Positions 1-55,349 of a DNA stretch of 64,000 bases are shown piece by piece. Where the stretch lies: NCBI GenBank assembly GCA_965178125.1, contig OZ237742.1:992001-1056000 (forward strand). The letters are read 5' to 3'. The notes under the pieces were generated by a model that made no database searches, was not told where the DNA came from, and saw nothing but the letters and a program-made list of their open reading frames with translations. How positions within the stretch are numbered: the first letter of the stretch is position 1; each line of letters begins with the position of its first letter. The position numbers were made by a program, and so were the translations under genes. This DNA comes from Bilabrum cf. latius (Eukaryota).

Positions 1-1334
1 ACCTCCACGTGCTACCGAATCGCACGGAGCCCCTGGGCCCGAGCACGATCGTGGCGCTCTCCCAGCTGGAGACCGTCCTGTCTGTGCAGGGGCTGGGACC
101 GGAGGACCCAGTCAGTGAGGTGGGCATCGACGGAATCACCTTCACAGGCACCACTCCGACGTTTCTGAGGAAGGACCGACCGTACACGCAACCGATTCTC
201 AACGTGGCTGGCTGGTCCGTGTACCTAGGAGCCGCGGTGGTGGTGCGAGATGCAATCAGGCCGTCCATCACCAGGTGCACGTTCCAGAGGACTGGAGGCA
301 ACGGCGTGCTGCTGCGCGGGGGCGTCGTCAACGCGAGCATCAAATGGAACGAATTCACGCAGACCGGAGACAGCGGCGTGGTCGCGTGGGGCGAGATCCG
401 AGGGCCCGACGCCACATACGACCAGTTTGTGGACGGGGCGGTGTTCGAGGGCAACTTCGCGCACGACCTTGGGCTGCTGGGCAAGCAGATCAGCGCGTGG
501 ACGCAGTTCGGGACAGCCCGCACCCTGATTCGGCGCAATGTCCTCGGTGCAATGCCGCGCGCAGCAGTCAACATCGATGATGGCATCTTCGGCGGCAACC
601 TCATTGAGTATAACGTCGGCTTCGAGTCCGTGAGGGAGTCTGCCGACCACGGCTGGATGAACCTGTGGAGCAGGGAGCAGGCCGTCTCTGTCCGTCCATG
701 GGACGGGGCCGTCACGCCGCTCGCCGACTGGAGCGGGGCCCGCAAGAACCTCGTGCTGGCTGCAGGCGGGACCCTTTCGAACTTTGATGGGGACGATGGG
801 ACGAGGTGGCTGTGGAAGGACCACAACTCTCATGCCTACGCTGGGGCCAAGAATTATCTTGGACACAGCAAGCATAACCAGAACTCCGTGCACGTCCTAC
901 CAGACCTCGGCATGATGAAGTCGCAGTGCATGTTCAGCGATGGCGACACGGAGCACGCTGGTTACGGCGAAACCTACATCAATAACACGTGCATCTTGCT
1001 GAACGCAACGGTCGCTGTGGATAGCGGGGGCTGTCAACACGGCAACGAGACCAAGACATCTGTGTCGTCCGATGGAAACACGTACTATGTGTCAAAGGCG
1101 AGCGGAGTGTAGTTCTCGTGCGGCGAGCAGTTGTACACGCAGCAGGAGTGGGAGTCCATGACCGGCAACGCAAAGAGCTCCAAGGTGCGGGTCGGGCTAC
1201 CAGCACCCGCACAGATCGTCAGCATGATGCTGGACACGGTAGTTGATGACGGTGGGGAAATGTAGCAGCCAGCTGCGGAGCGCAAGGCCTGGTGGATGGA
1301 CACGGCAAAGTACCTCCGCTAGCACTTTTAGTAA
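1..1334 (+). CDS. Right-handed parallel beta-helix repeat protein, pectin-lyase-like fold (5' truncated by window)
   Basis: Frame is open from base 3. Beta-helix-like repeats (CTFQRTGGNGVLL, NEFTQTGDSGV, IRRNVLGAMPRAAVNIDDGIFGGNLIEYN). Reads through TAGs at 1110, ~1263, 1320 and 1329 to TAA at 1332-1334. Confidence 0.7.
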
Positions 1335-19500: not shown

Positions 19501-22500
19501 TCAACTAGCTGCAGCTCAGGAATATACCCGACTGACTTGTTGGAGAGCACAGCACCCGAGGCAGGAGAGGTTTGCTTCATCAAGCTCAAACTGGCACTCG
19601 AAACTGCATGCCCGAAACAGCCAGGCGATTCGGTACGGACATTGCGTCGCCCATGCCTTACAAAGGCCACAGCACCGGCAATCGTGACATCATTTGAGGA
19701 ATTCGTCAAACGAGCACGCAGGGCACCCGATTCAGGATCCAAAGCACCGGTAGAGCAGACAAAAGAGGCAGCAAATAACTCAGTGCCAGGGGCGGGTGGG
19801 TCATCGATGCCAAAGTCAGACAAACTCCAACTCTAGTTCTGAAGGTAGCTCTGAGCCTCACCCCAGCCGGCTACTGTGCACCCATCAATTTCGAAGGGCT
19901 CCGATACGTGTTGTTCCGCATCCGCGGCAAAAAATACTGCCTTTATCGCTGAGACAGTCCGCATCGACCACTTCGCTGCACTGGCTTCCCAATTGCGAAC
20001 AAACAATTCTAAGATACCCGCAGAATATGCAGAAATCTCCAAAATTGTCGATTCATTGCTTGACGCCACACTAATCTCCAAGGACTCTGCCAACCACTGT
20101 CCATGGCAGAGCTGCTCTATCGAGGTCGTCCTCGGTGGTACTGTAGCGGACACGCAGTCTGTGCCAGCCAGCTCAGCGGAGTGATAGTCGGAGAACCAGC
20201 TAGTCTGACTGGGTGCTACGGTGCTGGCAATCGATGTCCTGTTTATGGCGCTTTGCAGGTCCCATACGACGCGCTGGATACGGGGCTGCAGCCCGTTTGC
20301 CGGCATCAGCGTGCAAGCACCAGACGAGCTAGATAAGTATGTTGAAGTTGAGAGACTTTGATCTACTAGGTTGCTTGCACAAGTGCCAGCTTGCATGGGT
20401 ATCCTTGACCATCTAGGAACCACTGCCTCCTGTCCGCGCCGTGGAGCGATTCTTGTCCAAATGCCATGGTCGCGAGATACAGCGTCTACACCAGATGAGA
20501 GCGAGTACTCTGGAGCTCCCTCACTTTCATCGGTGCATTTCCAGCTAACAGGCTCTCTTATTTGCACGCGGACCTATGTGTCACGCTTGGAAAGCGAGAG
20601 CCGCGGGCCAAAAATTCCTGCTAGGCCTGCTGCTCCGCCCAGGCTCCGTCCCAGCCGGCCATCTGCGGCAAGCAGGTGCCCCGTCGAAACGAGCAGCATC
20701 GATGCATTCATGCCGATGGATCTCCCATCGGGCAATTTTCCTGGTGCTGAAGTCTGCATCACAACGGATTGAGGCGTGCCTATATGTTGCAGCGCACTTC
20801 GTTGCTCGATCTACTCTGCTTGCAGCATTCGCCTTTCGTTGTCACCACCAGTTCTTGTCAGACTATTCAATTCGCATGGGGCACAAAGAGGGGAAGCTTT
20901 GCGCTGTTTGATGTCATCGCAAGCTCTGTGAATCGCACGCAATAGGTGCACCTCGGTTCTCGCAGGACTTGCTGAAGCCAGTTGGGACGGGATGTCTGGC
21001 CAACAGCCTGCGTTGCCAGGGAAGTGCAACTGCTGGCTGTCCCACAACTGGAGTCTGGCACAACCATATGTCGTCTAGTTATCGTATAGTCGAAAGATGC
21101 CATCGTGTGGGGATCCCATGGACGGGTTTGCAGCGGTGCGGCCTACTAGTTGAACATCTACTCGTTCAATTGTCAGTCTGTCGACCGAGCTGGTGCCGGT
21201 ACCATCCAAAGCCTAGTCTCCGTGCTACCACGGTAAATGCACTACAGACCTTGCCAATGAGGTATCTACCCGGTTGTTTCCAGGGTGCTACCTTGCTTCG
21301 GCCCGAGGTGCAAGAGCTCCTCTAGATCCGGCACGTTCCTACAACTCGGGAGCGAGAGGATCCTGCAAGTCACTAGTCGCACTTGGAAACAGCGATAGCC
21401 GCCTAGGCTAAGTCTTGCTATTGCTTTCTCTCAGACTTGGTGAGGAAACGCGCTACTTCGACGCCAGCAAGTCCCAGACGTGAGGCGGCAGGCCGCCACG
21501 CGTACCTACACCCAGAACTGGCAACGCATACCCGGTACTGTCACCCTACACAGGCTCCAGGGAATCGACCAAATGCTCCACAACACTCCATACTACGCTT
21601 CCGTTTGGTTGATCAGTTCCAACGGTGAAGTGGTGGTTAGAATGATTCCCAGGTTGAAGGGTATTCTTCGCCCTGCGCAGCCTCTGAACCATGGCCTCTG
21701 CTCTGCGAAGCAGGCCGTTTACATCAACGTTTCCTGCCGAGAGTAGCGGTTGTACCCCCTTGCGCAAGTCGGTCTCACTGGCGAACATTGGAACTGCGCA
21801 GAACCCAGCAGCAGTCTCGGATGTGCGGTTGGTGCTCTTGCGCCACTCGAGCATAGGACCGTTTGGAGCATCCTGACGGTGCTGAATCGTGTATCGTATG
21901 CTGGTCTGTATCTTAGACAACTCGCTACCATGATCTCCGCCTTTCCAAAGCTGGAGCAAGGGGGCGGGATACTTGTCATTTTCCAACCCGCCTCCCTGCG
22001 GCATCCAGTCATCCAACCGGCGAAACGGCTGGACTTGTGTGGATTGACTGCGCTCGCTGGCAATCCCAAGGACAACACGATCAGATCCAGCACCATGGGC
22101 TAGCTCAGCAAGCATATGCGCCCCAGCAAGTGTACGAGGGGCTGCTGGGGTACCATAGCCAGCAAGATCAGCCGCTGTCCCATTCTAAGGCCCGACACAA
22201 GCTGCTAGCACCCTCGCTTCTGAATCATGAACGTGGTTAAGGCACATGGTAGGGTCTTCAATCCACACGTGCTGCCCCTGCGGCGCGTCCGCTGCTCCCG
22301 ATTCCTTGTATTCGGAGCAATGCGTGGGAGGAGTTTCGGGGATCCTGTGCATGACGGCCGTGGCAGCCAGCAGCAGGTTGGGCCTCTCGAGCGTAGTGGT
22401 GGCGTGGATGCTCCTGTTGGCCGGCTCTGGCCCATGCAACATCACGTGGGCACCAAACCCACGGACAATGTTCGAACCCCATGGGATTGCGTAAGGCACG

Positions 22501-23885
22501 TTAGCATCTGCAGAGGCCGGCCCCTCTGGTCCTTCGGTCTCGACTATGCGCGGGGGCAAGGGCTTTTCGCTGACAGAGAGGAGTGCTCCAGGGACTTGGC
22601 TGTATGAAAATGAAGGCGCGCGCACTACTGCATGCGACGCCACCGCGAAGTCCATCCAGCTGTCCAAAACGCCGCTCCTAACTGGTTCTCCTGGCACCCG
22701 AGTCCTGGCTCTTGCCACCAGGGTGGCTAGCACAATCGCGCCCTCTCCCATGTACAGACCAGGCGCACCGATAGCAAGAACTAGGGTAGTGGAACCCGCA
22801 TTACCCACTGTGGACTTGGTATGGGCTGTCCAAGTGCCTGTGGAGGCTGGGCCTCTACTACGCTCCGCAGGCAGACCTCCGACCACTGTGCGCTCCAGCA
22901 GCACCACTGATGCGCCGAGGGCTCCTCCGTCCTGGGATAGAGCTGCTGGCATTCCGCCCCTCCCCCCGATTTCGAGCCGCCAGAAGCCCTGGAGCTGACC
23001 GTGAGGTGAGCTCCCATTGGCGGGCAGGCACTGCGACATTGGCTTGCTGCTGCAGTGGCCCCCCGCTGATTTCGCGCGATCTGGCGACTACTCGGGCGCC
23101 ACGGTACCACTCCCTTGGCCAGATCCAATAGCTACAATTGCTACTGCCCCAGCACCATGCCCCCGTCCCGCGCGCCACGCTGTCGAGCGGGAAGGGTTCG
23201 ACTGGTCAGCCGCAGCTGCTGCCCCTGGCAGACCCAGCGCGAGGAGCTGACCGGGAGGAAGCGCTTTGGGCCGAGAAATACGACCTACAGAGATGTCTTC
23301 CGAGCTCCCAAGCCACGCCATGGCGGCACCCAGTCTGTCGCCGTGCCGCAGGTCCCCAGGGGCGAGACCGCAGTCACCACTAGTGATCATGCCGTGTATA
23401 AATATTCGAGCTAAGTTAACACCAGAGGGACCTGACTATATTCCCAGCAGATAAACTCCACCTGCCCGCCCAGGCAACTGCTAGCGATTTAAATGAGACG
23501 GCATTGCGGATGCCGTGGGCAGCTCCGGTACACCGATGGCAAGGATTGAAGTGTGCGAATCGAGCCTGGGTAAGCCGAGTCCACAGCAGGATCCAGCTGA
23601 TGATATTATTCCAGCATATATAATGGTACTGATCGGCGGGCGACCCAGCTTACTCGATGCATCAAGGTGTCTGCAGAACCGAAAGTCGAGCGACCTTGCC
23701 ACGTGCTTATCGCACAGATCCCGCATAAGGCTCGCTGTTTCGGTCTGCTGGGACCTTGCAGCTGAAACACCTAGCTTTAATCTACTGTACGTAGATTCCT
23801 TAAGCAAATCGCTGTCGTGAGCTGAAGCAGGCAGCCGTTGGAACGAAGCGCATAGAACTAGAACGCTTAGACGTGCAAGCCACAT
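1593..23885 (-). CDS. Giant (~7,430 aa) single-exon signal-peptide, multi-pass membrane protein with FG-GAP/integrin-alpha-like motifs, IPT/TIG-like repeats, S/P/T linker, Cys-rich module and C-terminal TM domain (protist GPCR-related/TRP-like type)
   Basis: 38 minus-strand track ORFs share one frame; each ends in TAG except the last (TGA at 1593). The gaps I translated contain no TAA/TGA. Signal peptide MWLARLSVLVLCAS; motifs FGSSLAFVGD..GDG, LAIGAPG, PRVLNVVP..AGPGETISIRGEGFG, CASGHTGVMCQQCEDGF, KILFTHLQ, YWEAVNLLRK. Confidence 0.85.
1730..2240 (-). repeat. Imperfect internal duplication (~330 nt spacing) in the charged C-terminal tail of the giant protein
   Basis: RSESRTSDAGTG...RGKG...VFEAESEKARKEKQAFEEHKRKAERRK versus RSESRASGAGTG...RGKG...VFETESEKARKEKEAFEEHKRKAEQRK. 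Confidence 0.8.
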
Positions 23886-25643
23886 ATGGGACTTTCCGGC
23901 CCGTCTCTGCCGCTAAATGTTGTACATATCACTATTTTATTTGCAATGGCGCGGAAATTGATAGATCGCACCTGTTTGCTTCGCAAATGAAGACGAAAAG
24001 ATGTGTTTTATCACCCAAATCCGTGTCTGCAGCGAGAAGCAGCGAATCCATCGAAAAACGGGATTTGGGACAGCTTAAAGTACACTCTACAATGCAACCG
24101 ATAATCCGGAGGGGGCCTTTGGCCTGAAAGGGTCGGGGGTCTTGTAGTCCTTTGTTTTTAGGGCTCCTCTGGATCTAGGTGATCACCCAAACCCCCTCGG
24201 GGGCGACGGTGCATCTGGGTGTTTATGGAATCTTTACCCAGCAATCCGTCGAATGTAACGGAACAATACACAATTTACTGGTTTTTGCCGGTTCCGGATC
24301 AGCAATTTGCGCGGCGCCCAGATAATTCGGAGAAGAAATCATGATGCAATTCGATTCAGCGCGCTCTTGCGAGTCTGCTGGTGCGCCTTTCAACTCCATA
24401 CGATGAGATTAAGTCTGTTAACATGCCATTCAAAGAATTGGCCTCTAGCAGGGAGCTGCAGCTTTGCGCGGCGCCAAAACTGTGTGATTAGTGTCGCACG
24501 ACACCCCGACACTGCCCGCATACCCCTTTCTAGTCTACAAAATAGACCTAAAAATATACCTGTATGATAATGATGCTAAATTATACGCTGCTGTGCAGAC
24601 GAATGTCTGAATAAGATTCATTTGGACACGACAGGGTCCACGGTCATCCCTCTGGCAGCCGCAACAAACTTGCTTCGATTGGCCCTCTGAGATACTGAAT
24701 TTGATTACACTCCTCATAATTCTGAGCAAATTGATGACTTTATTCAAATAACGCGCTCATATTCTGCTGTGCGGTTCATGAGTAGGGTGTTTCCCGTGAG
24801 GATGACTGAACCAGGCCGCAGAGTTAGCTATTGCACATTTACCTCACCAATCTGCAGCTTACCGCGAATTGAGACCAACCACTACATTTTTTGTATTGAT
24901 CGTATTCAGAAAATCGAACAGGAGGCTACTATGGCCATCATTAGGACACGAGCAGCACCAGCAGCTGTGCGGGTGGCCAGATCCAGAAGACCTGAAGTAC
25001 GCCATGCTATTCTACACCATTGGGACTGAAAATCCGTACACTGCCTTTTATTAGGTATATTAATACCATGATTAGTCTCAAACTAGTACTGGCCTCATAG
25101 ATTTGACACAATTGTGTTCTGAATGGTACCAAACCACTGGAAACAGCCACAACTTGCGAAATTGTAGGACCTGTACAAATACAGTACCATACACAAACAA
25201 ATCGTATGTATAAATAAACTATAAGTGTATCAGGACAGTGGTGAATTGGATTCTGCCCAAAATGAATCGAGATCTGACGTCAAATGAGACCATCCTCGGT
25301 TCTAATGGACTCTCTGTGACATACTGGAGCGGTGATTTGTTTTAAATACCTATTTGATCTGTAATGAAGTCGACCAATAGCGCATTCTATTCGTCGAAAT
25401 GATTGCACAATAGGGATGCAGCGTGGACTGTGGTTTCAGTGGCATTTGGATCAGCGTGCTGCTCCTCTCGTTAGCCTTACGGTGGTTGTATGGTAATTCA
25501 CTAATTACACAATGAAAAAACCTCATTACATGGAAGATACGCTATTGATGTCGCGTGATAATCGACGAGTTGTATTGTGTCGGGGATCGTTGCGGTCAAG
25601 AATTGGTGTGATGAATGTGTCGGGGTAAGTTACAACCGACGGA

Positions 25644-26072: not shown

Positions 26073-29000
26073 TTATATGTACGACGCCTGGCTCCGAGCA
26101 GTGGCACTTTCCTCCGACCGCGGCGTGTCCACCTCAGCGATTGTATACAGGTCGTATCTCTGGGCGCAGTAGTTGGAGGGGAACCAGCCCACCCTCTCTC
26201 CGTTCTGGCCCTCCCACCACCCGCTGTCGTCCTTACGGAGGACCAGGATATCCTCCCCCTCCGTGATGGACAGCTCGTTCTCGCCCTGGGCCTCGTACGT
26301 GGCTAACGCCCGCATCCACAGCTGCTCCCCACCCGCCCCCACCGCACCTCCGCCTTGTCCCCCCACTGTGCCCTGCACCCCGTACCCCTACTCAACCCCT
26401 GAGCCAGCTGGATACTCACCTGAGCCCCCACCATACCCGGCCCCGCCTTCCCCACCATAGCCATACTCATCCGCTGCGCCATACCCGTACGCGTCCGCAC
26501 CGCTTCCGCGGCCAGACCCTAGGGCGCCTCCATCGAACGGCTGCATCAATGTGGAGCCCTAGGACCGAGCCGAGTCCAACGGCTGCCGAGACCCGTCAGA
26601 AGCAAGGCCAGCTGCCATGTCTCGGCCCCGTGAAGAGCTCTATCCAAGCCCACTGGTACTGCCACTGGCTGGACTGCCATCATCCATGACTTCACTAAGC
26701 TGCCCGACTGCTTGAAGCTCGCCATGCTGATCAGTATCGACACGAGCAGGCCTTGAGCGGGCGGATCCCACGACGTAGCTGTCCTAGTCGTCGTCCGGCG
26801 GAGGAGGTATTGGAACCGTGCCTGCCAGTCGGTTAGACTTAGACAGTGGCGTTGATGTACTGCTGGTGGCACCTGCTCGAGATGCAGAGTCAAATCCGGC
26901 CGGGCTCGCGGCCGGGCTGTTGCGTACAGATCCAGGAGATAGCCCGAGCAAGCGCGCCCGATCTGCGTGTCTCGCGATCCCGTCGGCCGCCTGCCCGAAG
27001 TCCTCGCTTGGTGCATATTTGCCACCGCTCCCATTGGAAGGCGAAATATGCGGCAAAGACGCTGAAAGAGAGGACAACACTTTAGCATCGACCGATTTAC
27101 CTCGCATACATTCGCCCACATGCTGAAGCACGATCTGCTGCATCACAGGCGGCCGAGTGGCTTGGAGCATTTCAACAACGCTCGTACCGCCGTTGGACTC
27201 CAGGACCTAAAGCCACGCTCCTGTATCTGTCGGCCCGCGGGCCCCAGGAGCTCCCTAGGTCGATACGCCGTGGCCCATCCATCGACCACAGCAGACTGAC
27301 AGTCTCACTGCATGCGTCACCAGCGACTGCACGGCGACCGGGATCCACTCGATAGCAGCAGCGATGGAGGTTGCGTCAGACCCAGACAGCGTCTGCTTAC
27401 CAATTGACCGCTCTGACTGCTACGAAGACTCGCCAAGGTGCGCGACTAGGTACTGCTCCGAACGTCTCGCAGCGCCTGGCACCGAAAAGAATGGCCCACC
27501 TGGCGGTACTGACAGCTAATTCTAGGCATCAGCCAGGAGTGCCTTGACCCTTGCTCGCAGCACACGACCCTTGGTGCACTCTAGCGTCTTGATACAGACG
27601 GATAGGACCTACAAAGTCTCCCGCATTTCGTCGCTTCGTTCCAACAGACCCCGCATGGCCGACTCAATTGCCTCAGCGGCTCGGAAGTGGCACTCGGTGG
27701 CAGATAGCTGATACGGGCTTGCAGAGTCTTGCGAAGAATCAGCAGCTGGCTCGGATCCAGCGACTGCGCTCTGCCTCGATTGTAAAGAAGCCCGCGCGCG
27801 ATGCAGCCAACCTCTCATGAGCCCATGCTACTTGACTCTGGCTTGGGCTCCCCTATCCTGGAATCGCTGGCGTGCAGTCTGACTGCCGCCTGGAGTCTGC
27901 GCCTTATCGTAAAAGCTCGATTCAAGCCATTGCTCCGCGCAAGCAGAAGCTACCACCCACTCACCGCCACCAAAGAAAGCAGCGCCTGCATGCGAGCATG
28001 ACATGGTTGATGTACGGATAATGGGCTCTGCCTCCCGGAGCACATGTGCAATGAACGCAGGGGTGGTGCTCTTGCTTTCCAGATTCGCCTGAAAGGCAGC
28101 ATCGATGTACTAGGAGCCAGCAAGATCGTTGGATGCACCCGTCCCACGCTCTGGCTGCGGCATTTTGTGAGAACCTGTCTGCGGCATGGCCATCACCACG
28201 GGTCCAGGCATGCCCTACGACCACGGAATAGCCTCGAGTTCCCCACCACTGCCTGTCTCCATCTCATGCCGGCGCAGCACCGATTCGAAACTCGCGCTCT
28301 CCTTCCCATCAGACTTCGTTCCATTGATACTTCCATCGCCCATACTTCCGATACTACCACTTGGAGGCTCAGCCTCATGCTTCGCTTCCTACGCCGCTGT
28401 GTCCCAGTTCGTCCACCAGTCCCGCAGCGCCCACAGGCTGCTCGAACAAAACTCAGCCACAGCCGCCAGATGTTGCTCCGCTCGGCTGCACGCGCGGGCA
28501 CATTCCGCAAAGGAAGGTGCTCGTGATTGCAGGGCAGCATCGTCCCCCTTGGCCGTGGCGGCGCTTAGCATGGTCGATACGCTCATGCCTTCAGTTTCTC
28601 CACTCGATTCAAGCAGTCCATCTTCGGCAGCATCACGTCCGCTTAGGTGGCCGTTCCTGTTAGGACTAGACCGCGGTCCGCCCCCAACCGCACTGCCACA
28701 GTCACGCATGTAGTTGCGGATGGCAGCTGCCACTGCCCGCGCCCTTGCACGAGTAGGAAGTCCAATAAATCGGGCTAATCGTCTGCGGCCAACTTCTACC
28801 ATCCTGCGATACTGAACCAATGCTGCAGCTGCCCGCACAGTTGCCGCCGAGCTCTCCTCATTCGATACATGAGCAATGGCGCGAGGGCGGGAAGCAAAAG
28901 CACGAATGACGAGGCGGGCTGCCATGCCAGTGGTTATGTCGAGGGGCACAGGGGAGCATATGCGAGCCTGCGCCAAGCGGGCCAGCTGGGCTATGCACGA

Positions 29001-32000
29001 GTCGGGCAGGGTAGCGCCCTTCACAAAGTCATGCTGCAGCAGCTGCATGGCGCTTGGTCTGCTGGAGACGTCGCGCGTTAGGCAAAGCCTCACGAAGTCC
29101 TCGCCCTCGGTAGATAGCCTGCCTCGCAGCCGGTGCTTGGCTTGCTTGACGGCGTCCGCGCTGGCTATTTTGATCATGAGGGTAGCGCTGTTCTAGGAAT
29201 CATCGTCCCAGAGGGGCCTGCCCGTGGCCATCTCGATGACGGAGCATCCGAGGGACCACACGTCTGCGAGGTGCCAGTCCTGCGGCTGCACCTGCCCGTT
29301 CACCACCTCTGGCGCCATCCACTGCACGGTGCCCTACCCCCGTGGAGATCCTATCAAGGCATCGCTGCGGAGGGTGCCTAGCCCGGTCCCGATGGGTGGG
29401 GGCTGTGTGCTGGATGGTGCGTTCATTCCACGCTATGAGTCAAGTGCCGCAGGATTTACCACACCGCTGGGGGCCTGGTCAGCTCCAGCCAAGATCTTGC
29501 ATGAGCCAAAGTCCCCCAGGAGCGCAACTCCGTCGTGCTGCAGCATGATATTGCCTCCTTTCACATCCCTGTGCACAATACCGTTCTCATGAAGGTACTG
29601 AAGGGATAAGAGTATCTGCACGGCGATGACGCGCACAGCCGGCTCCGCAAATGGGCCAAACTTCTTGAGCATCGCAGCCACAGAACCGGCAGCGGCGAAC
29701 TGCATGTACATTCGCACCGTGGGCAGGGGTGACTGCGCAGATGGCTCCCTTGACTCCAGGCCAAGGTATTTGACGATGTTTGGATGCTGTACCGACCGCA
29801 TGACCAAGGCTTCTCTCTCCAGCGAGCGCGCTTGCACGGCGGATGAGACATCCACGAGCTTGACAGCCATCAGGCCCGCCGTGTCCTGCCTCATTCCCAC
29901 GTGCACCCGCCCACTGACGCCCTTGCCAAGCACTGGCCCGCTCTTCCATCTGAAGCCCGACTGCGTCGGTATACCTTCCCTTGGAATCTACCCGATGCCA
30001 CCGGCCGAGAAGAGCTTAGAGTCCGGCATTTCCAGAGCCTCGGACGCGAATGATTCGAAGGTGGTGGCACCCGAAGATCCGAACGACATGCTGCTATTGT
30101 GACGAGTGTGCCCTACCCCGGCACTGATGTGCGATCCTGCCCCGATGGAGTGATGCGCACCGCTGCGGGCGGACGCCAGCCCAGCGCCGGTGTGCTGGGC
30201 CACAGACAGCGGTCTCAATCCTGGCAAGACCGCCCCGGGGCTGGGAACTGGCCTCCCGTATGCCACCGGAGACCCCCTGCCGCTCGCTCGGGTGACGGAA
30301 GGGTCGAGACCTGGCAGCGCAATCTACGCACCAGCCGCGGTGGGATCGGCGGCGAACCCCGACATGCTAGCGCTGCGAGCCACGGGAAGGGGCGAGAGCG
30401 GCGGCCTCGACTCGACAGCACTGTTCTCGGCGGATGCACCCGAAGGCACCGCAAGACCGCGCGCACTCCCAGTTCGGGGCAGGTCGAGCCTCCCAGGCCG
30501 GATTGCATCCAAGGACCCGGAATCCCGTGAAGCTCTTGCGGTCGGGGCCGCCCCAGCGGCATGTCCCCTGGCAGTGCCGCCTCGGTCCTCCGTCAGGTGC
30601 TCCGCCCGTTTTGCATCGGCTCGAATTGCTGCAGCAGTCGAGATCTTTGCTTGTAAATCGATAGTAGAGCCCGCAATACCAGCAGACACGCTTCTGTTAG
30701 AGGATGATATGACCGGCAGGCGCCCCTTACCGTCCCTGCTACCGCTCGACTCACTCCTGCGGGCGCTCAGAGAGCCCCTATTGCGGTGCACGGGCGGTGG
30801 GGTGTCCGTGGCGGGGGACTAGACGGCGCTTGTTGGCAGCGAAAGGCTCTCTGACCGCTTACGCCCATGAGGTCCCCCGGCCTGCGACCGGCTTGAACCA
30901 TGGAATCCGCGGTGTGACTCGCCTGCCGGCGACGATCCAGTCCCGCCCCCCGCGCTGGAAGGCCTAATCTACTTCTGCCGACGAGAATCACCACCCACGA
31001 TCCCGTGGTTCCCAAGGATAGGCCTGTGCCTGTCCCCGACATCGCCCGACCGTCTCTCTGCAGTGCTCGTGGCGGAAACGGCATCGTCACATCCGCGCCG
31101 CGCGCTAGAGACAGGGCTGGCAGCACTGTATGCCGCTTGGCCTGGGTGCCAGCTAGGCTCGATACCAACGCCGGGATGGCTGGCCCCTGCACTGCCACTG
31201 ACACTGCCAGGCAAGCCGGGGGTGCGTGCTGCATCCGCTGCTGCTCGAGCCACGGGTGGCTCCAGGCCGGGCCGCAGCACCTCGCCCGCGAGCAGCGTGT
31301 CGCTTCCCTCTTTGGTCTCCTAATGGCGAACAGTGCCGTGAAACAGGCCATGCGGGCCCTCTCCGGTGTTGTGCCCCGCGGCACCTCCCGCTGCTGCCAG
31401 CTCCCGTACCACGGCTAGTGATCGGCTCCGTGACGCGCCCTCGTCCAGGTCCTGGTCCTGCCCACCATCCTGGTCATCGCTGTCCGATTCGCTGTCGTCG
31501 GACACATCTGCCCCCCGAAAGAACCTTACTCTGAGTTTCTGCGGCACGATTTGCTTCTTCCATTTGGCAGACGACCAAAGGGCGGCCAGCCCGCGTGACA
31601 GGTCCGTACCTGCCGTCGAGCCCTGGGGGTACCGGACCATCTGCACGAGGAACTTGTCTTTGGATGGGATGCCGCCATCTGTGCTGTCCTAGGATGAGGC
31701 TTTATCCAGAGCTTCATCGACTGCCCCGGCAGCGAATACAACTGCGAGAAAAGGCGTGCTAAACGTGGCACAACACATTGGGCTCAGTGAGCATGTCGCG
31801 CGACACCAGTTCAGCAGCACCAGTAGGGACCGGCTTGGTATACCGAATCTTACGCTTAACACTAGTTGCTGATCCTGGAAGCAACATTCCGGTGGATGGC
31901 CCAACCATGTACTGTTTCGGGTTGGTCGTTTTGATCTTGAATGCCACCGGTTCTTGTGTTCCGAGAGAGTGGTCGAGTATAATTCGAGCGCTAGCTGAGC

Positions 32001-32336
32001 GACCTGGCATTACTGCATCATAAAATAATAACATGAGCGCCCCACAACTTGGAAAATCTGGGCGTACTCGCGAGAAACAAGCAGCGAGCGAAGCTGCAAC
32101 GGATGGGTCCACTGCGTAGCCTCACAAGCAAAGGACACTTCAGCGGATGGCCGAACGCGTACTAGAGGCTACACAGCCTACTTTCTAGTTGGAGTACTCC
32201 CAACAATACTTTTGAGTTTCATAGGAGTCCGAAGTTGAGGCGGGCGCCTTGTTGGCGTTGCAGGCGTATCAGCTTCAGACGGAGCCGTTCCTGGCTGCCC
32301 ATCACGGGGACCAGAGTCCAAATCTGAACCGTACAT
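26073..32336 (-). CDS. MSP-domain + STE11/MAP3K-like Ser/Thr kinase + C-terminal SH3 protein (~2,010 aa)
   Basis: Predicted exons 32336-32126, 32012-31854 and 31741-26073 (GT-AG introns of 113 and 112 nt). MSP motifs [32 protein letters not shown]; kinase [46 protein letters not shown]3 ALATYEA..ENELSI..GWWEG..GWFPSNY. Internal stops are TAG only; ends at TAA. Confidence 0.85.
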
Positions 32337-35271: not shown

Positions 35272-35446
35272 CTCTATCGCGCTCGTTCTTGGAATTCTGG
35301 TATTGCCGGCAAAGCACTGGCATGTGTGACGAGGGCGGATCGTCGGGGCCAAATTCTCGAAAACAACCTATCTTTGCAACCATTGAATTGAGTACCAAGA
35401 TTTCAGCGGTGTATTTTCGTGAATTAACTCAACTACGGCACTGAGT

Positions 35447-38400
35447 ATGAGTTCAAGGGCTACAGCCTAGCGATCTGCTCGCGGATTCACTACGTCCGAT
35501 CCCCCACCGATCGAGGCTGTGTACCAGACAGTTCTCGTGCCCAATTCGGTGCTCCCTGCCGAGGGACTATCGGCGGTAGCTGGTCTAAAGAATGAAGTAT
35601 ACCTTGGAACTGACAAGGGAACGTTGCTTCATGTAGGATTCGAAACTCAGGTGGATTCTAGATCGCTTCGAAACAGCCACTCACGGCACTAGATTCTGCA
35701 CAAGGAAGTTGCAAAGAAGAGAGGAGCAGTAACGAAAATAATCTGTGTATTTGGACAAGGCGAGGGCCCACGTACGGGTGCAGGGGCCGCGTCTGGTGCG
35801 GGAGGTCGGGCGGCGGCCGCTCCGCAAGCGTGTGCTGGTCTGTTCAGCCTTGCTGGCGGCGACCTCACGCTGCATCGGCCCGACCTGTAGACGGAATGCA
35901 AAATTGGGGACAGCAGAAGGCCTATTCTAGACATTGCCATCGCAGTGCCGGACTAGCCCAACCCAGACGATCCATTCGAGGGTCTCAGGCTGGTCGCGCT
36001 TCAGGCCGGCAAGCTCATCGTGTACCACTGGGCCGCGCAGGGCAGGATGAGCAACCGACAGCTCTCTCTACCCTCCACACCATTGTGTGCGACCATTAAC
36101 AGTGACGGGCTAATCACGATCGGTTACTCGCGCGAGTACAACATTGTGGAGGAGAGGGACGGCAGGGTCAAAGACATCCACGCAGACCTGCCCAAGTCTG
36201 GGAGGCCCGTCCTGTCGGCCATGCCAGGGGGAGAGGTGCTTGTGTTCACAACTGGCTTTGGTCTCTTCATAAAGCCAATCAAGCGGGAGCTGGATGCAGG
36301 AACTGAGGTCGACTTCCATCCCAGCCAGAGGGGTACACTGGTGTGCGACAGAACTCCTGACAGCGTCATGTACTCGCACCCGCTTCTTGGGCTCGTATGT
36401 GACCAGTCCTCGAAGGCAAGGGTGGACGTGTTCGCCCTCGCTAGCGACATGCAGGTGCTGCAGCAGCTGGAGCTGGGGCAGCCTGTCGCGGCAGCGAGCG
36501 ACAATGGATCGGCCCAGTACCGGCCGACGCAGCAGAACGGCTTCTTTGATTTGGCCATGGGCGGAGCTGTGTGGCGGGTGCATCAAAACCCCGTGTTTGA
36601 CGTCGTTTCGCAGATGCAGTGCAATGGAGACACAGGGCTGGCGGAGGAGATGCTGTAGATGTACATGGCAGCAGAGTCGATGGAGTCTTACAATGCCGCC
36701 ATGGAGAGGCACTACTGCCAGACTGCAGTGCTGCTGTGGCTGAGGCTCGAGTTTCGGCTGGCCATGTCGTACTTCAGGAAGATTCGAGTGCACCCGATGG
36801 AGATCGCCGCAACGATGCCGTGGCTGCTACCGGCTGCCAGGAGCCTCGGCAGCTTGCGTGTCAGCGTGTTCTCTCCTGACATGCTTGCTGCCGTGTCCAG
36901 CGGGTCTAGCCCTCCCAATTCGTGCATATCCACCTCGGACCTCCGGGCATCGCATGCCTCACTAGGTGACTTTGTGAACACCGGTAGCTCTCTCAGGACC
37001 GTCGCAGACATGGTTCTTGCGAAGCGTCAGATGGCCGAGTTTGAACACAAGCCATCGAAATCTGGGCCGATTCGACGGTCCAGGTCTGGTCGAAGCGCGG
37101 ACCCTGCCTTCTATTGGGGAGCTGTGAAGTCAAGTCGTATGGCTGCTTCGATGAGAGAGGATGAAGACTGGGAATCCATCGTACGGGCAGGCAAGGACAT
37201 TTCATCGGATGAAATCACATCAATTGCGGAGATTTGCTTTATTTAGTACGCTTTTGCTTGGCTGAAACAGAAGGGCGAGGAAGCCGATGATACGGTTGGT
37301 GTTGTTCACAGAGCCCTCATTGCAGCTCTGGTCCGAATTTAGGAGGCCTTTGAAGGGAATGTTGAAGTAGAATCGTCGCTACCACTGCTATCATCAGCGT
37401 TGCGCATCTGTAAGGTGCCCATCGACGATGAGATTTACGCCCTTCTGTCTAAGCCGAGGTACAGGTTGGAGCTAGCAGACTTTTAGATGTATCGGGGTAA
37501 TTTGCATACCGCACTTCAAACCTGCAAGGATATCGGTACCATCGAGGCAGCAAGGGTGGCTTGCACGAATTTGGCTTGTTCGGATGATGAGGATCTGATA
37601 AGACGTCACTGTCCATGGGTTTTCACTTTGGACCACGACCTTGGTTTGAGAATATTCATGAGTAACAGAAGACGGTCGTAGCTCAGGCATGAACTTATGA
37701 TTTCGATTATCCGTGATGCTGGGATTCCAGATGTACTAGCTGATAAGGATAGCCCATTGATTCGTCTCCTGTTATGGATGATTAAGCAAGGCGGCAGTTC
37801 CAATGAATCGGTCCACACGCTACTTGGCGAGCTTCTCGTGAAAGCTGTATCAGCAATACGGGATGAGGATTGGGCCCCTTTTGAACTTCCTCCCATACAC
37901 GCCCTTGATGAGACCAAGCTTGATGAAGAATGTCGCCAGACTCTACGGTAGCTAGCTGGTTCATAGTTCAAGGACAGAAAGCATCGAATTCAACCTGGTC
38001 TAGAAGAGGGCGAACTTGGTCTTCGACGTGGAAGACTCATGCGATTTCTGCGATTCCGCGGTTGCAAGGCGGATGCTAACGTGCTGCTACCCCTTTGCTA
38101 GAAATCGATGTTTGAGGAAAAAATGGAGCTCTTTGGGATGCTTGGGAACCATCAAGCAGCAATCCAAATTGCAATTGGCAACCTTCATGATTTCAGTGCC
38201 GCGGAAGAGTACTGTGAGCGTAGGGAAAGTAGCGCCCGTGGTGACCCGCTCCGAGACTACTTGCAAATTCTGCAGAGTGAAACTAGTGAGAGCGAGACTT
38301 GGAGAGCGGAGCTTTTAAGCAATCTTTTGTCAAAATATGCGGATCGACTGTCTTCGGCCGAAGTCGTCCATTTCGTGCATGGAAACCGAACAGTATCAAG

Positions 38401-38671
38401 CCTCGGACCATACGTTGCTCAGGCTGTACCCAGCCTATTTGGAGACGGAAGGGAGCATTACTTGGCGAGGTAGGTTGCAACTCATGAGCGGGTCTCTAGT
38501 CGCAGCTCATTGGCGACTGCAGAACGTCGTGGATACGTTTTAAGCAGGTTGTCCAAATGCTCGGTCTCAGGTACAAGGATCGGGGATGCCGCATTTTGCC
38601 TTCAATTTGACCTGAAGCCTGTGCTCATGAGTGAGCTTCGAAGGTTGAAGGATATATCTCTTTACAGTTGA
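35447..38671 (+). CDS. VPS39: Vps39/Vam6/TGFBRAP1-like tethering-complex subunit (CNH-like propeller + solenoid), ~1,074 aa
   Basis: One frame from ATG 35447 with TAG-only interruptions. Motifs VYLGTDKGTLL, LIRRHCPWVF, EEKMELFGMLGNHQAAIQI...DFSAAEEYC and C-terminal KCSVSGTRIGDAAF. Ends TGA, then TAA. Confidence 0.7.
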
Positions 38672-41749: not shown

Positions 41750-43468
41750 TCACGAAGCTCCTTCACCCGCCTGCGCTGGAATCGCCTCGGCCTCCCCGCC
41801 AGCTGCTGCAGCGCCTGTCTCCCTCCCCTCCCCACTCGAGCCCCCCTCGCCCCTCGCCCCCTCCTTCTCCTCCTCCTGACGCGCCCTCCACGCCAAGCAG
41901 TCCCTCCGAGGGCCCCCCAGCACACCGTCCAGCTCCTCCGCCGCCACCTCCAGGGCATCGTTCACGATCCAAGTGTCCCACCTGAGCCCCCGCGCCTCCT
42001 CTGCCTCCCTCCTCGCCGCACCCAGCCGCACTCCCAGCTGCTCCTCGCTCTCAGTGCCACGCCCACGCAGCCGAGTCTCCAGCACGTCCCCAGGCGGTGG
42101 TGTGACGAACACGTACCTGCCCACATCCAGGCCCAGATCCTGGCAGGCCCTGACCCCCTGCACGTCGATGTCCAGCAGGCACACCCTGCCAGCCCCGCAC
42201 ACTCTCTCCACGGCCGCCTTGCTGGTGCCGTACAGGTTGCGGTGCACCTCCGCATGCTCGATGAATTCCTTGCGACCAATCATGCCGAGCATCTGCTCGC
42301 GGGTCACGAACGAGTAGTCCACTCCGTCCTTCTCCTGACCCCGAGGGGCCCTCGTCGTGTGGCTCACGCTGAAACCGAACACGTCTGGTCTCTTGGCAAG
42401 CAGTTTCTGGATCATCGCGCTCTTCCCCACACCACTGGGCCCACACACCACCACGGGCCGGCACCGGGGCACTGGCTGCTCCTCCCCCTCGCCCTCTCCC
42501 TTCTCACTGCTCAGCAGCTCGGACGGAGAAGGCACTCCGGACGGGCGCACGAAAACGTCCTCGTCCTACCCGCTGGCGACTGCACCGCCATTCGATGCAC
42601 CCTTTTCCTTGTCTTTACCACTGTCCTGGCTTGCATCAGCCCCAGCCCCAGCCCCGCTCAATGGACCTTCCACAGCCTCGGCCCCTGCCTTCGCTTCCCC
42701 TGCCTCCTGCCCGTCACTGTCTTTCTCGTTCTGCTTCTCATTCTCACCGGGACCCTCTTTCGGTTCCGAGCTGCTAGCAGCCCCGCTGTCCACCGCCCCT
42801 TCCGCCTTCTGGCCACCGTCGCCCTTTTCTCCTGCGCCAGCCCCCGCCCCCGACCGCAACGAGGCGTGCATGCGGCGGGCCCTCTCCACGGCTGCCTTGC
42901 CCGCGCCCACCAGGTACCGGACCATCTCGGGGTGCTCGGCAACTGCGTTCGCGAAGGATTGAAGCGACAGGCTGCCGCCCTCGGGCGCTTGCTTCATGGC
43001 GTCGGTGACGAGGGCATCCAGGGTGGCGTCGTCGGGCACATCGTCCCCGAACCACTCGCAGGCGCTCCGCATGTGTCCCAGCGCAGCACGCAAATCCCCG
43101 GCTGAGACTTTGCCGTCGTGGTCCGAGTCTGACATGCTGAACGCAAACTTGATTCGCTCCGCTGCGCTGCCTCTAGTCAGCATGCTGAGCCCCACGATGA
43201 ACTCTCTCAAGTTGATGCCCCCAGATAGGTTCGCGTCAACCACCGCAAAAATTCGACGGAGAACGCCGGCATCTTCCCCACCAATTCCAACGGACTACAT
43301 TGCTTCAGTGAACTCTTCTGCGTCGATCGTGTTCGGATCTCCCTTTCGTTTCGCGATTTCAACAAACTTGTCCCGCAGACTGGTAACCTCCGCTCGATCA
43401 AACTTTGTTACATTGGCCATCGCACCCACAGCCATCGTCTAGAACTCTTTGCCATGCGAGTTTCCCAT
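41750..43468 (-). CDS. Calcineurin-B/NCS-like EF-hand domain fused to guanylate kinase (~572 aa)
   Basis: MGNSHGK start; EF hands DANLSGGINLREF and DSDHDGKVS; acidic linker; GK motifs GPSGVGKS, SVSHTTRAPR, EFIEHAEVH..LYGTS, LDIDVQG. One frame with 3 TAGs, including 42566; ends at TGA. Confidence 0.85.
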
Positions 43469-43675
43469 GCTTGCAAAGGCAGCGATCGGACGGGCAGCCC
43501 CCTCGAGTAGCAGACCCGCTGCTTCGTTAATGATTCATGTTGCCGAACGTTCGTTTAGCAGAGACGAACCTTAACGGATCGAATCTGCTCTCTCAGCCCT
43601 GTGGCACAGCAGAGTCAGAGCCATGCCTGGAAACTCACCGTAAATCGTGCGTCGTACTGCAAACAAAGGCTTAGT

Positions 43676-48507: not shown

Positions 48508-51500
48508 TCAGCAGAACGACATGGGCTTGACGAGCGCCAGCCATCGCCGCACGGTCCTCTGCAGCAACGGGTCACCCCGCTGCGCCACCGCCGCTGCCTC
48601 CGCAGACGCCCTGGGTGCCAGTGCTCGAAGCAGGGTCGTGTGTGTCTGGGCCCCCGGCGTGGGCGCCGGGTCAAACACGGGCGATTCCTCCAAGGCGCTG
48701 CACAGCCACCAGCGCATCCCCGCCGCGCTGTCCTCGTCCACAGTCGCCACGGCGGTCCTCCAGTCCGTCTCGTGGCCCTCCACGGGGGGGCCGTACCCCG
48801 CCGCGCTCTCACGCAGCACCTCCTTGCCGCGCTGCAGCACGCCGCCGGGGCCGCCGCCGGCCTACCCATCGCCACCTGACCCCGCCCCCGCCTCCCCGGC
48901 GGCAGCACCGTCGGCTGCCCCTTGGCTGCCGCCGCCGTAGGACACGAACGGCAATGTCTTGGAGTCGGGCACGATCAAGGGCTCCGGATCCCCTACGGTG
49001 GCGTGGGGGGGCACCATCAGCTCGCGGCACCGCAGCACCGCAGCGTGCTGCGCGGCAGCCTCCCTGTCCCCCGCGGGCCAGCGCGGGTGAATGGCCCCCG
49101 CGCCCTCCTGGCACTGGGCTGACCTGGGTCCCAGCGGCCTCTGGTTCCACCGGGACCACTGCACCTCGAACGCCGCGCTGCACGTGGCGATCGCGGCGGC
49201 GCACGACTCCTCCAGCTGAGGGTCCTTGGCCACGGGGGGCAGCCCAGAGGCCTCGCACACCAGGCCGGGCCTGTCCGCGTCCTCCATGGCCGGCCGCACC
49301 AGCACGCCCGCCCTCCAGAGCCCCTCGGCAAGGGCAGAGGGGCGCATGGGCCGGTGCAGCAGAGAGCCCAGCTCGCGGATCCGGGGGGCCAGCAGCGCGC
49401 ACGTGTCGCCCTGCAGCAGCACCTGCAGGGTGAGCCTGGCCGTGTCCAGCGTGAACAGGCAGGCGGACTCGGGGGACGAGGCGGGACCCCTCGATGGGGA
49501 CGACCGGACCCCTTCGGTCCCAGGGGCAGCACCCGCTCCTGCTCCAGCAAAGACTCGTGGGGCCACCGGCCTGGCGCTCCACCCCTTGTACGGGATGTCC
49601 ACTTCGCGGGGCACAACGAGGGCCATGGCGGCCAGGCGCGTGGTCTTGAATGCCAGTTCCCTCGTGTCCTGGTCAAAGGCAGGCCCGCAGTCCTCCTCCT
49701 CCACCCACTGGCCCTTCCCCACGTCCCTGTAGCAGACCCTCAGGTCCTCGGGCACGAGCAGGTCGTCGGGCATGCGCACGTACAGCCGGGCGGCAGCCGC
49801 CATTCCCTGGCCCTCGTTGGGGTGCGGCCGGCGCTCGACCCCCTCCGCCAGCGCCGTCGTGCGCTGCATGTGCCACCGCTTCACGGTCTTGCCCTCCCCC
49901 GGCCGGGTGAGGAGCTCCGCAAAGACCACCCCGCCCAGCGGGACGTCATCGCTGGGCAGCAAACTGGGGTCCGTCCTGGCCCTGGCCTTCCGTGGCTCGG
50001 GTGGCACGGGGCCCGACCCGCTGAGCTGCTTGATTTTGAGCGCCGCCTCCGATTCGGGTTCTTCCTGCTCCTTCGACTCCTCACCCTCGCCCTCGGCCTC
50101 CCCCTCGGCGGCCCCTGCGGCTGCACCAGGGGGGTTGTCAGCCCCGGCCCCCGATGCTGGGGGCGGCTTGCCCCCTTCCTCCACCTCCTCATCCGCACCG
50201 CCCTCTTCCCCCTCTTCCCCCTCTTCCTCCCCCTCCTTGCCCTCCGCCTCGCCCTCGCCCTTCCCTGCGTCGCCGCTTGCCTCGGCCGCTGCTGCTGCTG
50301 CCACGGCTGCCGCGGCGGCGGCCGCCGCGTCCGTCTGGACGCTCTTCCGCCTCGCCCTGCTCTTGCTGCGAGCAATGGCTAGCTCGTACGCGAGTGCACT
50401 GCACGGCGGTGGCACCAGGTCGTTGGCTTTCGCAAAGGCCTCAGCATCGGCAGAGGCGTCGTCGGCGACGTCGACAGGCACGCGCACCACTCGAATCACA
50501 GAGTCTGGCGCCGTCAGCGCGCGGGGCAGCTCCAGTCGCACCCCCACCTCGGACCCCAGGTCCGCCCGCCCGAGCCGCAGGGGCGTGGCCATCGCGTTGC
50601 CCCAGATACCCACCCGAACCGGCCCGGCCTACCTGGAGAGCGAAATCTCGGGCTGTCCGGTCTTCCTCTCCACCGTGTACTTGCTCCTGTTGGCCAGCGT
50701 CCAGGCGCACCACCCATCCAGCCTCCTCCTCGTGGTGGCCCTGATCTTGCGCGCGAACTCGCGGGCTAGCGCTGCGCCCGCCCTATCGCCCTCTTCCGCG
50801 GCGCGCAGTGCCTCCGCGTCGGCCATCTGGGCCACCTGCTCTGCCACCTCGATGCGGGAGAGGTCACCCGTGTCCGTGTGTCCCCTATCCGCCGGCCTCG
50901 ACCGCACCGCCTCCTCGTCTTCCTCGTCCTGCTCGGCCAAAAAGGCGCGCATGTCTGGCTCCGAGGATGGGTCGGGAAGCGGGGAGCAGGCAGAGGTGAA
51001 GAGACGGCGCTCCGCTTCGGTCTTCCGCTTGGAGCGCAGCTGTCCCGACAGCCGCGCAGCGAGCGCTCGCTCCACCGCGGTATCTTCCTCGTTCTCGCCG
51101 CGGAGGCGCTCGAGCTCGCTGGATCGCGCCTCGCTGGCGGCGGTCCTTTGCGCAAAGTCATCCTCGGCTGCTTTCAAAGCCGCAGCCTCACGCTTCTATC
51201 GCTCTTCTGCGAATATATAACCTTGGATTTGGTTCGATTGAGCGCGGTGGGTCGCGCTGGGTGCTATAAGTGACAACGGAAGTTCTCGTTCGGGCAGCGC
51301 GACGGTCTCCGACATTGACAAACCCATCGCGGCTACGGCACATCGCAGAGATCACTGCACATACCTTCTCTGATTCGTCTTTCTTCTTCCTCCTGGGCGA
51401 GTCTCTCCGCCTCGATTTCCTCCTTGGACTTCTTCTTTCTTCGCTTTGGCTGCGATCGTCGTGCGCGCAAACACTGAAAGCAGCATCAGCGTATGGTGAT

Positions 51501-53522: not shown

Positions 53523-55349
53523 TCAATTCCTCCACATCTTGAGAGTCCGGTCCTTGCTCCCGGTCGCCACGCGGTCCCCCGCAGGCGACCAGTCCAGCGC
53601 GTACACCTCGTCAAAGTGACCCGCCAGCGTGCCCGCCGCCTTGCCCCTGGACTCCTTGCCCGCCACCCACAGCTTGGCCGTGGAGTCCTTGCTAGCAGAC
53701 ACCAGGAACCGGCTATCGGGGGACCAGCACACCTGGTACACGGGGCCCACGTGCCCGTGCAGAGTCACCAGGAACTTCCCAGAGTGCCCGTCCCACACAC
53801 GCACCTTCTTGTCAAAGGATGCGCTCGCAACGAACCTGCCGTCCGGTGAGAAGCTGATGTGGTTCACCGCGGCCTGGTGACCCGACATCCTCTGCTTCGG
53901 CCGAACACTCGTCACACCCGAACCGCCGCCCGAGGCCAGCGCCAGCGCCTTGCCCGGCTCCCAGAGCATCAGCGTGTAGTCGTCCGAGCAGCTCACCACC
54001 CTCTCGCCCCCCTGCCGCAGCGCCTCCCGGGCCCTCTCTCGCGCGATGGCCTGCAGGGCGAGCGGGTCTCCTCCGCCCTCCCCTTTACCGCCTGCCGCCT
54101 CGGTGCGAGGCCGCTTGGCGGGGCTAGAGCCAGCCGAGGTGCCACTCGCTGCTTTTGGCTAATCTGCACCGGCTCCGCTGGCTGCGGCGGTCGACGGACC
54201 CGACGATGATGACGCGGACGAGGACGAGGACGAGGAGGCGCTGGACGCTGACGGCGCCGCGGCTCCATCTCCTTCCTTCTCCTCTCCCTTGTTGCCTTTG
54301 GCAGTGGGCGGCTTGACCTCGCCCTTGGGCAGCTCTGACGGCTTCCCAAAGTGCAGGGCGCCCGTCCTCGCCACGTAGTCCGTGGACAGAGCCAGCGCGT
54401 TGACCCTGTGCCCGTGCCCTGCGAGCTCGGCCACCAGCACGCCCTTGCCCCCCTCCCCATCCTTGGGCACCCTCCAGCACTTGATCGTGCGGTCTCTGGA
54501 GCACGTGTACAGCAGCCCCGTGAGTCCCCACCGCACGCACTCCACGCTGTCCTTGTGCCCCGCCAGAGAGAACAGAAAGGTTCCCCTCGAGGCGTCCCAC
54601 ACGCGCACGGAACCGTCCTTAGAGGCAGTCGCGAGCCGCCTGCATGTGCCGCCCCTGGCCTCGCTAACGGGTTCCCACGCCATGGACGTGATCCAGGCCT
54701 TATGTCCCACCAGCGGCCGGCACGCCTCCTTGCCCGTGCCTGGGTGCCACACGCGAGCCACGCCAGAGTAGTCGCCGCTGGCGAAGAGCTTGCCGTCGGG
54801 GGAGAAGGCGGTGCACAGCACGTGCGACTTGTGGCCCTCGCACTTGTGCTTTGGCATGCTCATGAAGGCGTCCCAAAAGCGGACCAGGCCGTCACCGCCG
54901 CCGCTGGCCAGCACACTGCCGTCCGGGCTGAACGACACGTGCAGCACGGGGGCAGTGTGCCCCGTCATCGTGTCGGTGCAGCGGGTGACTGGCCGCACTC
55001 TATAAAGACTGAGGGGTTGGTATAGCACGGCCACGGTGCTTTCAGAAGTCAGCCCCTTTGACTTTGCAGACTGCCCCAGTGTGTTGCCCATCTGATCGCC
55101 GCCGATGAAGAAGCCATAGGGCATGATTTCATCGTTCCCGAGCGCCTAGTTCACAAACGATTCGAGCTATGCCGGTGTAGTCGTGCCGGGTACCTCAACG
55201 GCTCCTCCTGTGGGAACACCATCCAGTGTTTGCAGTTGCACAAAGAACGACGAAGAGTCTGCAGTGGCCTTTCCAGAAGCTTTGCTGAGAGATTCTTCCC
55301 CACCACCGATCTGCGATCTTGGACGCTTCAGCGATCCTTTCCCGCTCAT
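53523..55349 (-). CDS. NLE1: Notchless/Rsa4 ribosome-biogenesis WD40 protein
   Basis: NLE ubiquitin-like domain (YQPLSLYRVRPVTRC), WD40 repeats, LVSCSDDYTLMLW and DRTLKMWRN end. TAGs at 55167, 55146 and 54159; ends at TGA. Confidence 0.93.

Follow-up and report, generated by a model that had tools for sequence, protein, structure and literature searches.

The question raised by this locus is how the triplet TAG is read inside a conserved gene. On the minus strand, positions 55146-55169 of the window (the whole stretch of 64,000 nucleotides analyzed here, G000:C8:992001-1056000, from a eukaryotic assembly of 48.6 Mb in 111 contigs) read TAG-L-E-S-F-V-N-TAG, and they do so within a frame that matches human NLE1 with a phmmer E-value of 1.8e-129 and features WD40 domains. 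The gene and its TAG codons are located as follows:

53523..55349, minus strand: NLE1/Rsa4 (Notchless) gene; 608 aa when UAG is translated, closed by TGA at the conserved C-terminus, start codon inferred
55167..55169, minus strand: TAG at codon 61, in a conserved Gln column where 15 of 16 orthologues have Q
55146..55148, minus strand: TAG, codon 68 of NLE1, variable column (E6 Q4 K3 G1 V1 N1)
54159..54161, minus strand: TAG at codon 397, within an insert of low complexity where the column is mostly gaps

The first-pass annotation had placed codons 61 and 68 on two glutamines of yeast Rsa4, and alignment to the yeast protein (PDB 3jct_x) agrees, with Gln facing both TAGs; in human NLE1 (8fl0) the facing residues are Arg and Ala, respectively. 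Among the 120 homologue matches listed, 16 cover at least 88% of the region and provide the column counts, the other 104 being generic WD40 proteins that were excluded. Codon 61 falls on a column composed of Q15/E1 and thus stands as evidence for glutamine, whereas the column of codon 68 is variable and does not discriminate.

Reading frames with TAG across the window

TAG is found inside further long frames of the window:

1593..23936, minus strand: 7447-codon frame, large membrane or surface protein; 67 TAG, 0 TAA, 0 TGA
26073..32009, minus strand: protein kinase and SH3 frame; 23 TAG, ends TAA
33490..35628, minus strand: DCP2 (box A and NUDIX) frame; 6 TAG, one within the DCP2 domain match; ends TGA
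35423..38671, plus strand: 1082-codon frame; 13 TAG, ends TGA
41750..43534, minus strand: EF-hand and guanylate kinase frame; 3 TAG, ends TGA
48508..51351, minus strand: CASC1-like frame; 3 TAG, two within the Casc1_N match; ends TGA

The five other frames of the region 1593-23936 carry 14-43 TAA and 79-217 TGA each, and the TAG-only giant frame is therefore not a chance occurrence. Its 7447-aa product, which combines a signal-like start, immunoglobulin-like repeats, Cys-rich modules and several hydrophobic segments, has almost no Pfam match, the only one being a weak DUF7630 match below the cut-off. The TAG coordinates that had been put forward for this protein (9372, 10701/10707, 4686 and 10233) are correct and the motifs around them are real, but the proposed parallels between its repeats are too weak to be diagnostic: across six repeat-like motifs the column before the first Gly is occupied by Q, TAG, C, E, R and R, and the residue facing the second TAG of TIIV-TAG-G-TAG-G is Arg in the original comparison itself.

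Several features of the neighboring genes deserve mention in their own right. At the C-terminus of DCP2 a near-identical unit of roughly 95 aa occurs about three times, and two of the copies share the position of a TAG. The frame at 41750-43534 (minus strand) is a fusion of an EF-hand domain, presumably calcineurin-B-like, and a guanylate kinase, and the 1082-codon frame, without a Pfam match in the domain search, may be Vps39/TGFBRAP1-like. Lastly, a gene at 3-1334 (plus strand) ends TAG-TAA, a candidate for either a tandem stop or a terminal Gln.

TAG at conserved glutamine positions and at gene ends

Dynein heavy chains provided the largest set of alignable columns. The 28 matches in the organism's own genome correspond to 19 loci, around each of which about 20 kb were taken, and the profile was built from 82 of the 120 listed homologues after removal of the 8 closest hits, 22 redundant vertebrate sequences (nearly all mammalian), 1 odd and 7 short ones. 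Over 49,956 confidently aligned codons all 61 of 61 sense codons returned their standard residue, and for the 180 TAGs in well-filled columns the best residue was Gln, with a log-ratio of -5.7 against -222 for Glu and -226 for Lys. In columns conserved at 90% or above TAG fell on Q in 34 of 59 cases, on E in 10, on Y in 1 and on L or W in none; CAG reached Q at the same rate (387/708; Fisher p 0.69), and the conserved Glu columns likewise received CAG (65/708) and CAA (13/92). Counted from the residue side, TAG held 34/754 conserved Gln positions, 1/773 Tyr, 0/797 Trp and 0/2960 Leu. A second column set, built from 147 of 150 diverse and more distant representatives aligned to the same HMM, gave TAG scores of 143.9 for Q, -31.5 for E, -240 for L, -348 for Y and -481 for W, and the TAG column profile correlated with that of the Gln codons at 0.991, with Glu next at 0.46. 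The residues named at the outset as competitors of Gln (Leu, Glu, Tyr and Trp) are hence not overrepresented in profile columns at TAG sites.

The same behavior extends to small GTPases, where 30 loci were sampled from 65 genome matches. At what we take to be the switch-II Gln motif, 24 regex hits in the 30 loci, less 2 duplicates and 3 non-Gln instances, left 19 sites encoded by TAG (8), CAG (6) or CAA (5). In 63 long frames chosen by codon score, with low-GC3 genes left out, 10% of Gln codons are TAG (514/5128), and across 38 stretches the TAG share goes up with the CAA share (rho 0.67) and down as GC3 increases (rho -0.79). TAG here behaves as a synonymous minor codon would, like CAA.

A survey of 79 metagenomic dynein loci yielded a single one with TAG in frame but not TAA (L099), which has 13 TAG, 0 TAA and 0 TGA over 2152 aligned codons and is 85% identical to the organism's own protein over 2655 residues. 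Facing the latter's 17 TAGs, L099 has CAG 10 times, TAG 3 times, CAA once and other codons 3 times; conversely, its own 21 TAGs face 13 CAG, 3 CAA, 3 TAG and 2 other codons. The initial proposal that UAG specifies glutamine is thus supported by conserved dynein columns, by GTPase switch-II sites and by CAG/CAA exchange with a relative. The survey also contained 11 loci with both TAG and TAA in frame, which served as a positive control; metagenomic dyneins with the two codons mostly on Gln columns, indicative of a ciliate-type code, are L142, L146, L147, L149, L155 and L157 as well as L163, L164, L172, L173 and L176.

Gene ends present the complementary picture. In 20 of the 30 GTPase loci a Cys prenylation motif is followed directly by a stop, counted by eye as TGA in 16, TAA in 4 and TAG in none, and for 11 of the 19 dyneins the examined DNA extends to the end of the profile; these terminate at TGA (9) or TAA (2), and no TAG lies between the profile end and the stop. 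All 31 of these verified C-termini therefore end in TGA (25) or TAA (6), and TGA is the dominant stop in the long frames as well (53/63). A code in which both UAA and UAG specify Gln (NCBI table 6) was rejected, as no TAA occurs in the 7447 codons of the giant frame and TAA directly follows prenylation motifs.

At the level of the genome it is established that TAG occupies Gln columns, exchanges with CAG and CAA, and is absent from verified gene ends. From these data, which are genomic DNA rather than RNA or protein, we consider it very probable that the organism uses a nuclear variant code in which UAG specifies Gln, UAA and UGA remain stops and all other codons are standard; that UAG is read as Gln within genes is held with still greater confidence than this complete reading. 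The combination presumably matches the content of NCBI table 15.

Candidate decoding machinery and competing readings

A candidate for the decoding tRNA is present as a single copy, as determined by DNA search of the assembly:

G000:C23:907607-907679, minus strand: tRNA with anticodon CUA, normal cloverleaf fold

Among 41 wider-pattern matches read by eye, an incomplete inventory, there was neither a second CUA nor a convincing UUA tRNA, the other tRNA-like matches including Lys(UUU), Arg(UCU), Pro(AGG) and a mitochondrial Arg. ARAGORN labels any CUA tRNA as a pyrrolysine one, a reading that was rejected because the TAG columns are Gln and not Lys. Over 75 positions the candidate shares 50 with tRNA-Tyr, 49 with tRNA-Gln(UUG) and 44 with tRNA-Gln(CUG). 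Its acceptor bases match tRNA-Tyr(GUA) at 12/14 positions versus 6/14 for Gln(CUG), and its anticodon stem matches Tyr at 8/10, such that the two elements together reach 20/24, where the maximum among 361 different-isotype pairs is 17. The D stem is identical to that of Gln(UUG) (8/8) but also to that of an Arg(CCU), and this likeness is therefore not specific. Because the tRNA inventory covers 63 scored candidates out of 780, with no His, Asp, Leu or Trp among them, descent of the gene from tRNA-Tyr is offered as a hypothesis; its origin as a mutated copy of the organism's own tRNA-Gln(CUG) was set aside, the similarity being below that to Tyr and Gln(UUG), though tRNAs yet unseen may be closer. 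As for identity elements, the gene has G73, G2-C71, G10, U35 and A37, elements of bacterial Gln identity according to a table whose entry for eukaryotic Gln is blank (PMC9976931). It lacks A73 and G34 and keeps C1-G72, all three assigned there to eukaryotic Tyr identity (PMC9976931). The limited likeness to tRNA-Gln(CUG) and the retained C1-G72 weigh against the Gln reading. In a separate instance (L040, L026, L036, L048-L050), several tRNA-Met(CAU) genes closely resemble tRNA-Pro(UGG) with 11-13/14 identical acceptor positions, possibly a further case of tRNA recruitment.

The eRF1 gene, whose four exons were deduced from homology together with GT-AG sites, ends in TAA. In human numbering its product retains GTS, E55, NIKS, S70, Y125, C127 and F131 and carries substitutions whose residue is rare among 95 homologues: N30D (0), S60V (1), F117P (0), N129S (4) and K130H (0). 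Two TAGs interrupt the gene itself: one at human position 44, where 89 of the 95 homologues have Q, and one at L69, where Q occurs in 6 of 95 other eRF1s and the change is therefore not diagnostic. Since the gene has TAGs of its own, release at UAG would truncate eRF1 synthesis. A Cafeteria-related eRF1 clade (P0400, P0402, P0403 and P0404) has N129S in common with this organism, and L69Q too where the N-terminus is present; one of its members is labelled Symbiodinium sp. KB8 and is probably a contaminant.

We propose that the tRNA-CUA would be charged by GlnRS, for which candidate loci lie at C33:559564 and C15:943864, and would read UAG but not UAA, and that eRF1, changed beside its GTS, TASNIKS and YxCxxxF motifs, would have lost most UAG recognition. 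A fuller version, advanced tentatively and with doubt, holds that this is the first nuclear stop reassignment in a stramenopile, that the tRNA-Gln(CUA) came from tRNA-Tyr(GUA) and not from a tRNA-Gln, and that an eRF1 which keeps GTS rejects UAG. Recruitment of tRNA-Tyr(GUA) would have involved the anticodon change G34C, A73G, conversion of U2-A71 to G2-C71 and a Gln-like D arm.

Three other explanations were weighed against the Gln code. UAG might have a dual meaning, Gln inside genes and still stop near some transcript ends, as stop codons do in Condylostoma and Blastocrithidia. The intact GTS, E55, NIKS and S70 of eRF1 speak for such a state, as do the gene ending TAG-TAA and a slightly raised TAG density over the final 10 codons of the 63 frames (7.9 per 1000, 5 in 630, versus 2.8 per 1000 inside). 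CAA shows the same upward trend there. Against a dual meaning, there is no depletion of TAG near gene ends, and TAGs lying 10-30 codons before verified ends are read through, as in GTPase locus L251 and, by its recognizable end, dynein L075. With TAG at 0 of 31 verified C-termini we regard a dual meaning as very improbable; rare terminal use of UAG as a stop is possible.

Less probable still, and to a like degree, are the two remaining explanations. If UAG stood for another residue or a mixture, e.g., Tyr, Glu, Leu or Trp, the acceptor (12/14) and anticodon-stem (8/10) match to tRNA-Tyr(GUA) and the 10 of 59 conserved TAG columns that are Glu would find an account; yet conserved Tyr, Trp and Leu positions are virtually free of TAG while Gln ones are not, CAG and CAA land on Glu columns likewise, and A73 and G34, which determine Tyr identity, are missing from the tRNA (PMC9976931). 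Alternatively, TAG might exist in DNA only, removed by U-to-C editing or small introns, or stem from errors of assembly or from stops in pseudogenes: a single transition separates TAG from CAG, and the genome does have introns (in eRF1 and GTPases). Against this, a cognate tRNA-CUA gene is present, and all 20 listed frame-keeping GT-AG intervals that would remove both NLE1 TAGs also delete orthologue-aligned residues. Furthermore, essential genes and an independent metagenome contig have TAG but never in-frame TAA or TGA, and errors or decay would not yield TAG alone, and on Gln columns alone. The preferred reading thus remains UAG as Gln.

Relatives, known codes and implications

The best named match of eRF1 is that of Cafeteria roenbergensis (69%), and in a 42-row tree the two group with support of 96/82, a placement that involves long branches, a single gene and one named Cafeteria sequence; the organism is probably a Cafeteria-related bicosoecid stramenopile, as judged from sequence comparison. 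In a quick, midpoint-rooted dynein tree (where L147 is a mis-framed row and was disregarded) the organism and L099 (100) are sister to L100 and P0121, within a 15-row clade that has no named member and is itself sister to labyrinthulids, oomycetes and ochrophytes. L100 and P0121 have no TAG and are uninformative on the code, L100 being 72% GC with 1 CAA. Another member of the clade, L102, has 0 aligned TAG versus 160 Gln codons, and TAG serves as the stop at the conserved C-terminus of its dynein; the standard code therefore persists nearby, and because TAG still terminates a gene in this related clade, the change would have arisen within the bicosoecid group containing this organism. A public database entry, P0254, is a 385-aa piece with 98% identity whose length is that of a TAG-bounded fragment of one dynein.

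Other observations concern the assembly itself. It holds two 18S rRNA types that are 83% identical, one in a 1700-nt tandem array on a large contig (G000:C12:950271-1029808, L002-L004) and the other as one 1802-nt copy on a 17.9-kb contig (G000:C95:6099-7900, L001); the latter, which we take to be alga-like, probably comes from a second organism. Sampled words in common with sequencing runs X1-X7 amount to 43-100% and were not counted as evidence. The mitochondrial contig (G000:C111; L005, L054) measures 38.4 kb at 28% GC, carries a tRNA-UCA and reads TGA as Trp, and a 535-codon frame (L054:4681-6288) adjoins cox1. Mitochondrial UGA is Trp in Cafeteria roenbergensis too, for which the available text reports a nonstandard code only in the mitochondrion (PMC6972860).

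UAG-only reassignment to Gln has been reported for Iotanema, Hartmannula, Trochilia and Protocruzia (PMC5304391, PMC11687900). As here, Iotanema spirale (Panek et al. 2017, PMC5304391; Vargova et al. 2022, PMC9161772) has UAG for Gln and UAA for stop, and each has a relative that keeps UAG as stop. It differs in being a fornicate known from a transcriptome only, with a tRNA predicted but not identified, and in having T32G within the GTS motif of eRF1, which is intact in our organism (PMC5304391, PMC9161772). The ciliates Hartmannula sinica, Trochilia petrani and Protocruzia tuzeti (McGowan et al. 2024, PMC11687900) likewise reassign UAG alone to Gln, with UAG making up 18.5-31.8% of Gln codons versus about 10% here. 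UAA is described as the favored stop in that work, TGA predominating here, and no suppressor tRNA was detected in H. sinica and T. petrani, where we find one tRNA-CUA gene (PMC11687900). In the literature compared, as far as its available text extends, no tRNA is identified for any UAG-only Gln case. The rhizarian exLh and phyllopharyngean MAGs also uncouple UAG from UAA, but to Leu; in these UAG = Leu systems a CUA tRNA derived from an isoacceptor was found in two MAGs (PMC5304391, PMC11687900). Position Leu69 of eRF1 is altered in both exLh (Ala) and our organism (TAG, Gln) (PMC5304391). Genetic code 15 of crAss-like and other gut phages, with TAG as Gln too, operates in bacterial translation and not in a eukaryotic nucleus (PMC9523058). 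Tetrahymena, hexamitins and ulvophytes share UAG as Gln, through tRNA-Gln(CUA), but read UAA as Gln too, which in our organism is never in frame and ends genes including eRF1. We found no report of nuclear UAG reassignment in a stramenopile in the literature within our scope, which leaves out most subscription journals, and the available part of the Halocafeteria genome paper makes no mention of codon, genetic code or UAG (bioRxiv 10.64898/2026.06.25.734631).

In light of these comparisons, the organism provides a further, apparently independent instance of a code that is known but rare. Few lineages are known to have nuclear codes in which UAG and UAA differ in meaning; stramenopiles would join them, and annotation with the standard code would break most genes of the lineage, as 53 of the 63 long frames contain TAG. 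If the fuller version, with tRNA-Tyr recruitment and a GTS-keeping eRF1, were true, the route to UAG/UAA uncoupling would be unlike that proposed for Iotanema. With candidate tRNA, eRF1 and GlnRS in one genome, a near relative that has the code and a more distant one that lacks it, how eRF1 drops UAG yet keeps UAA becomes directly testable.
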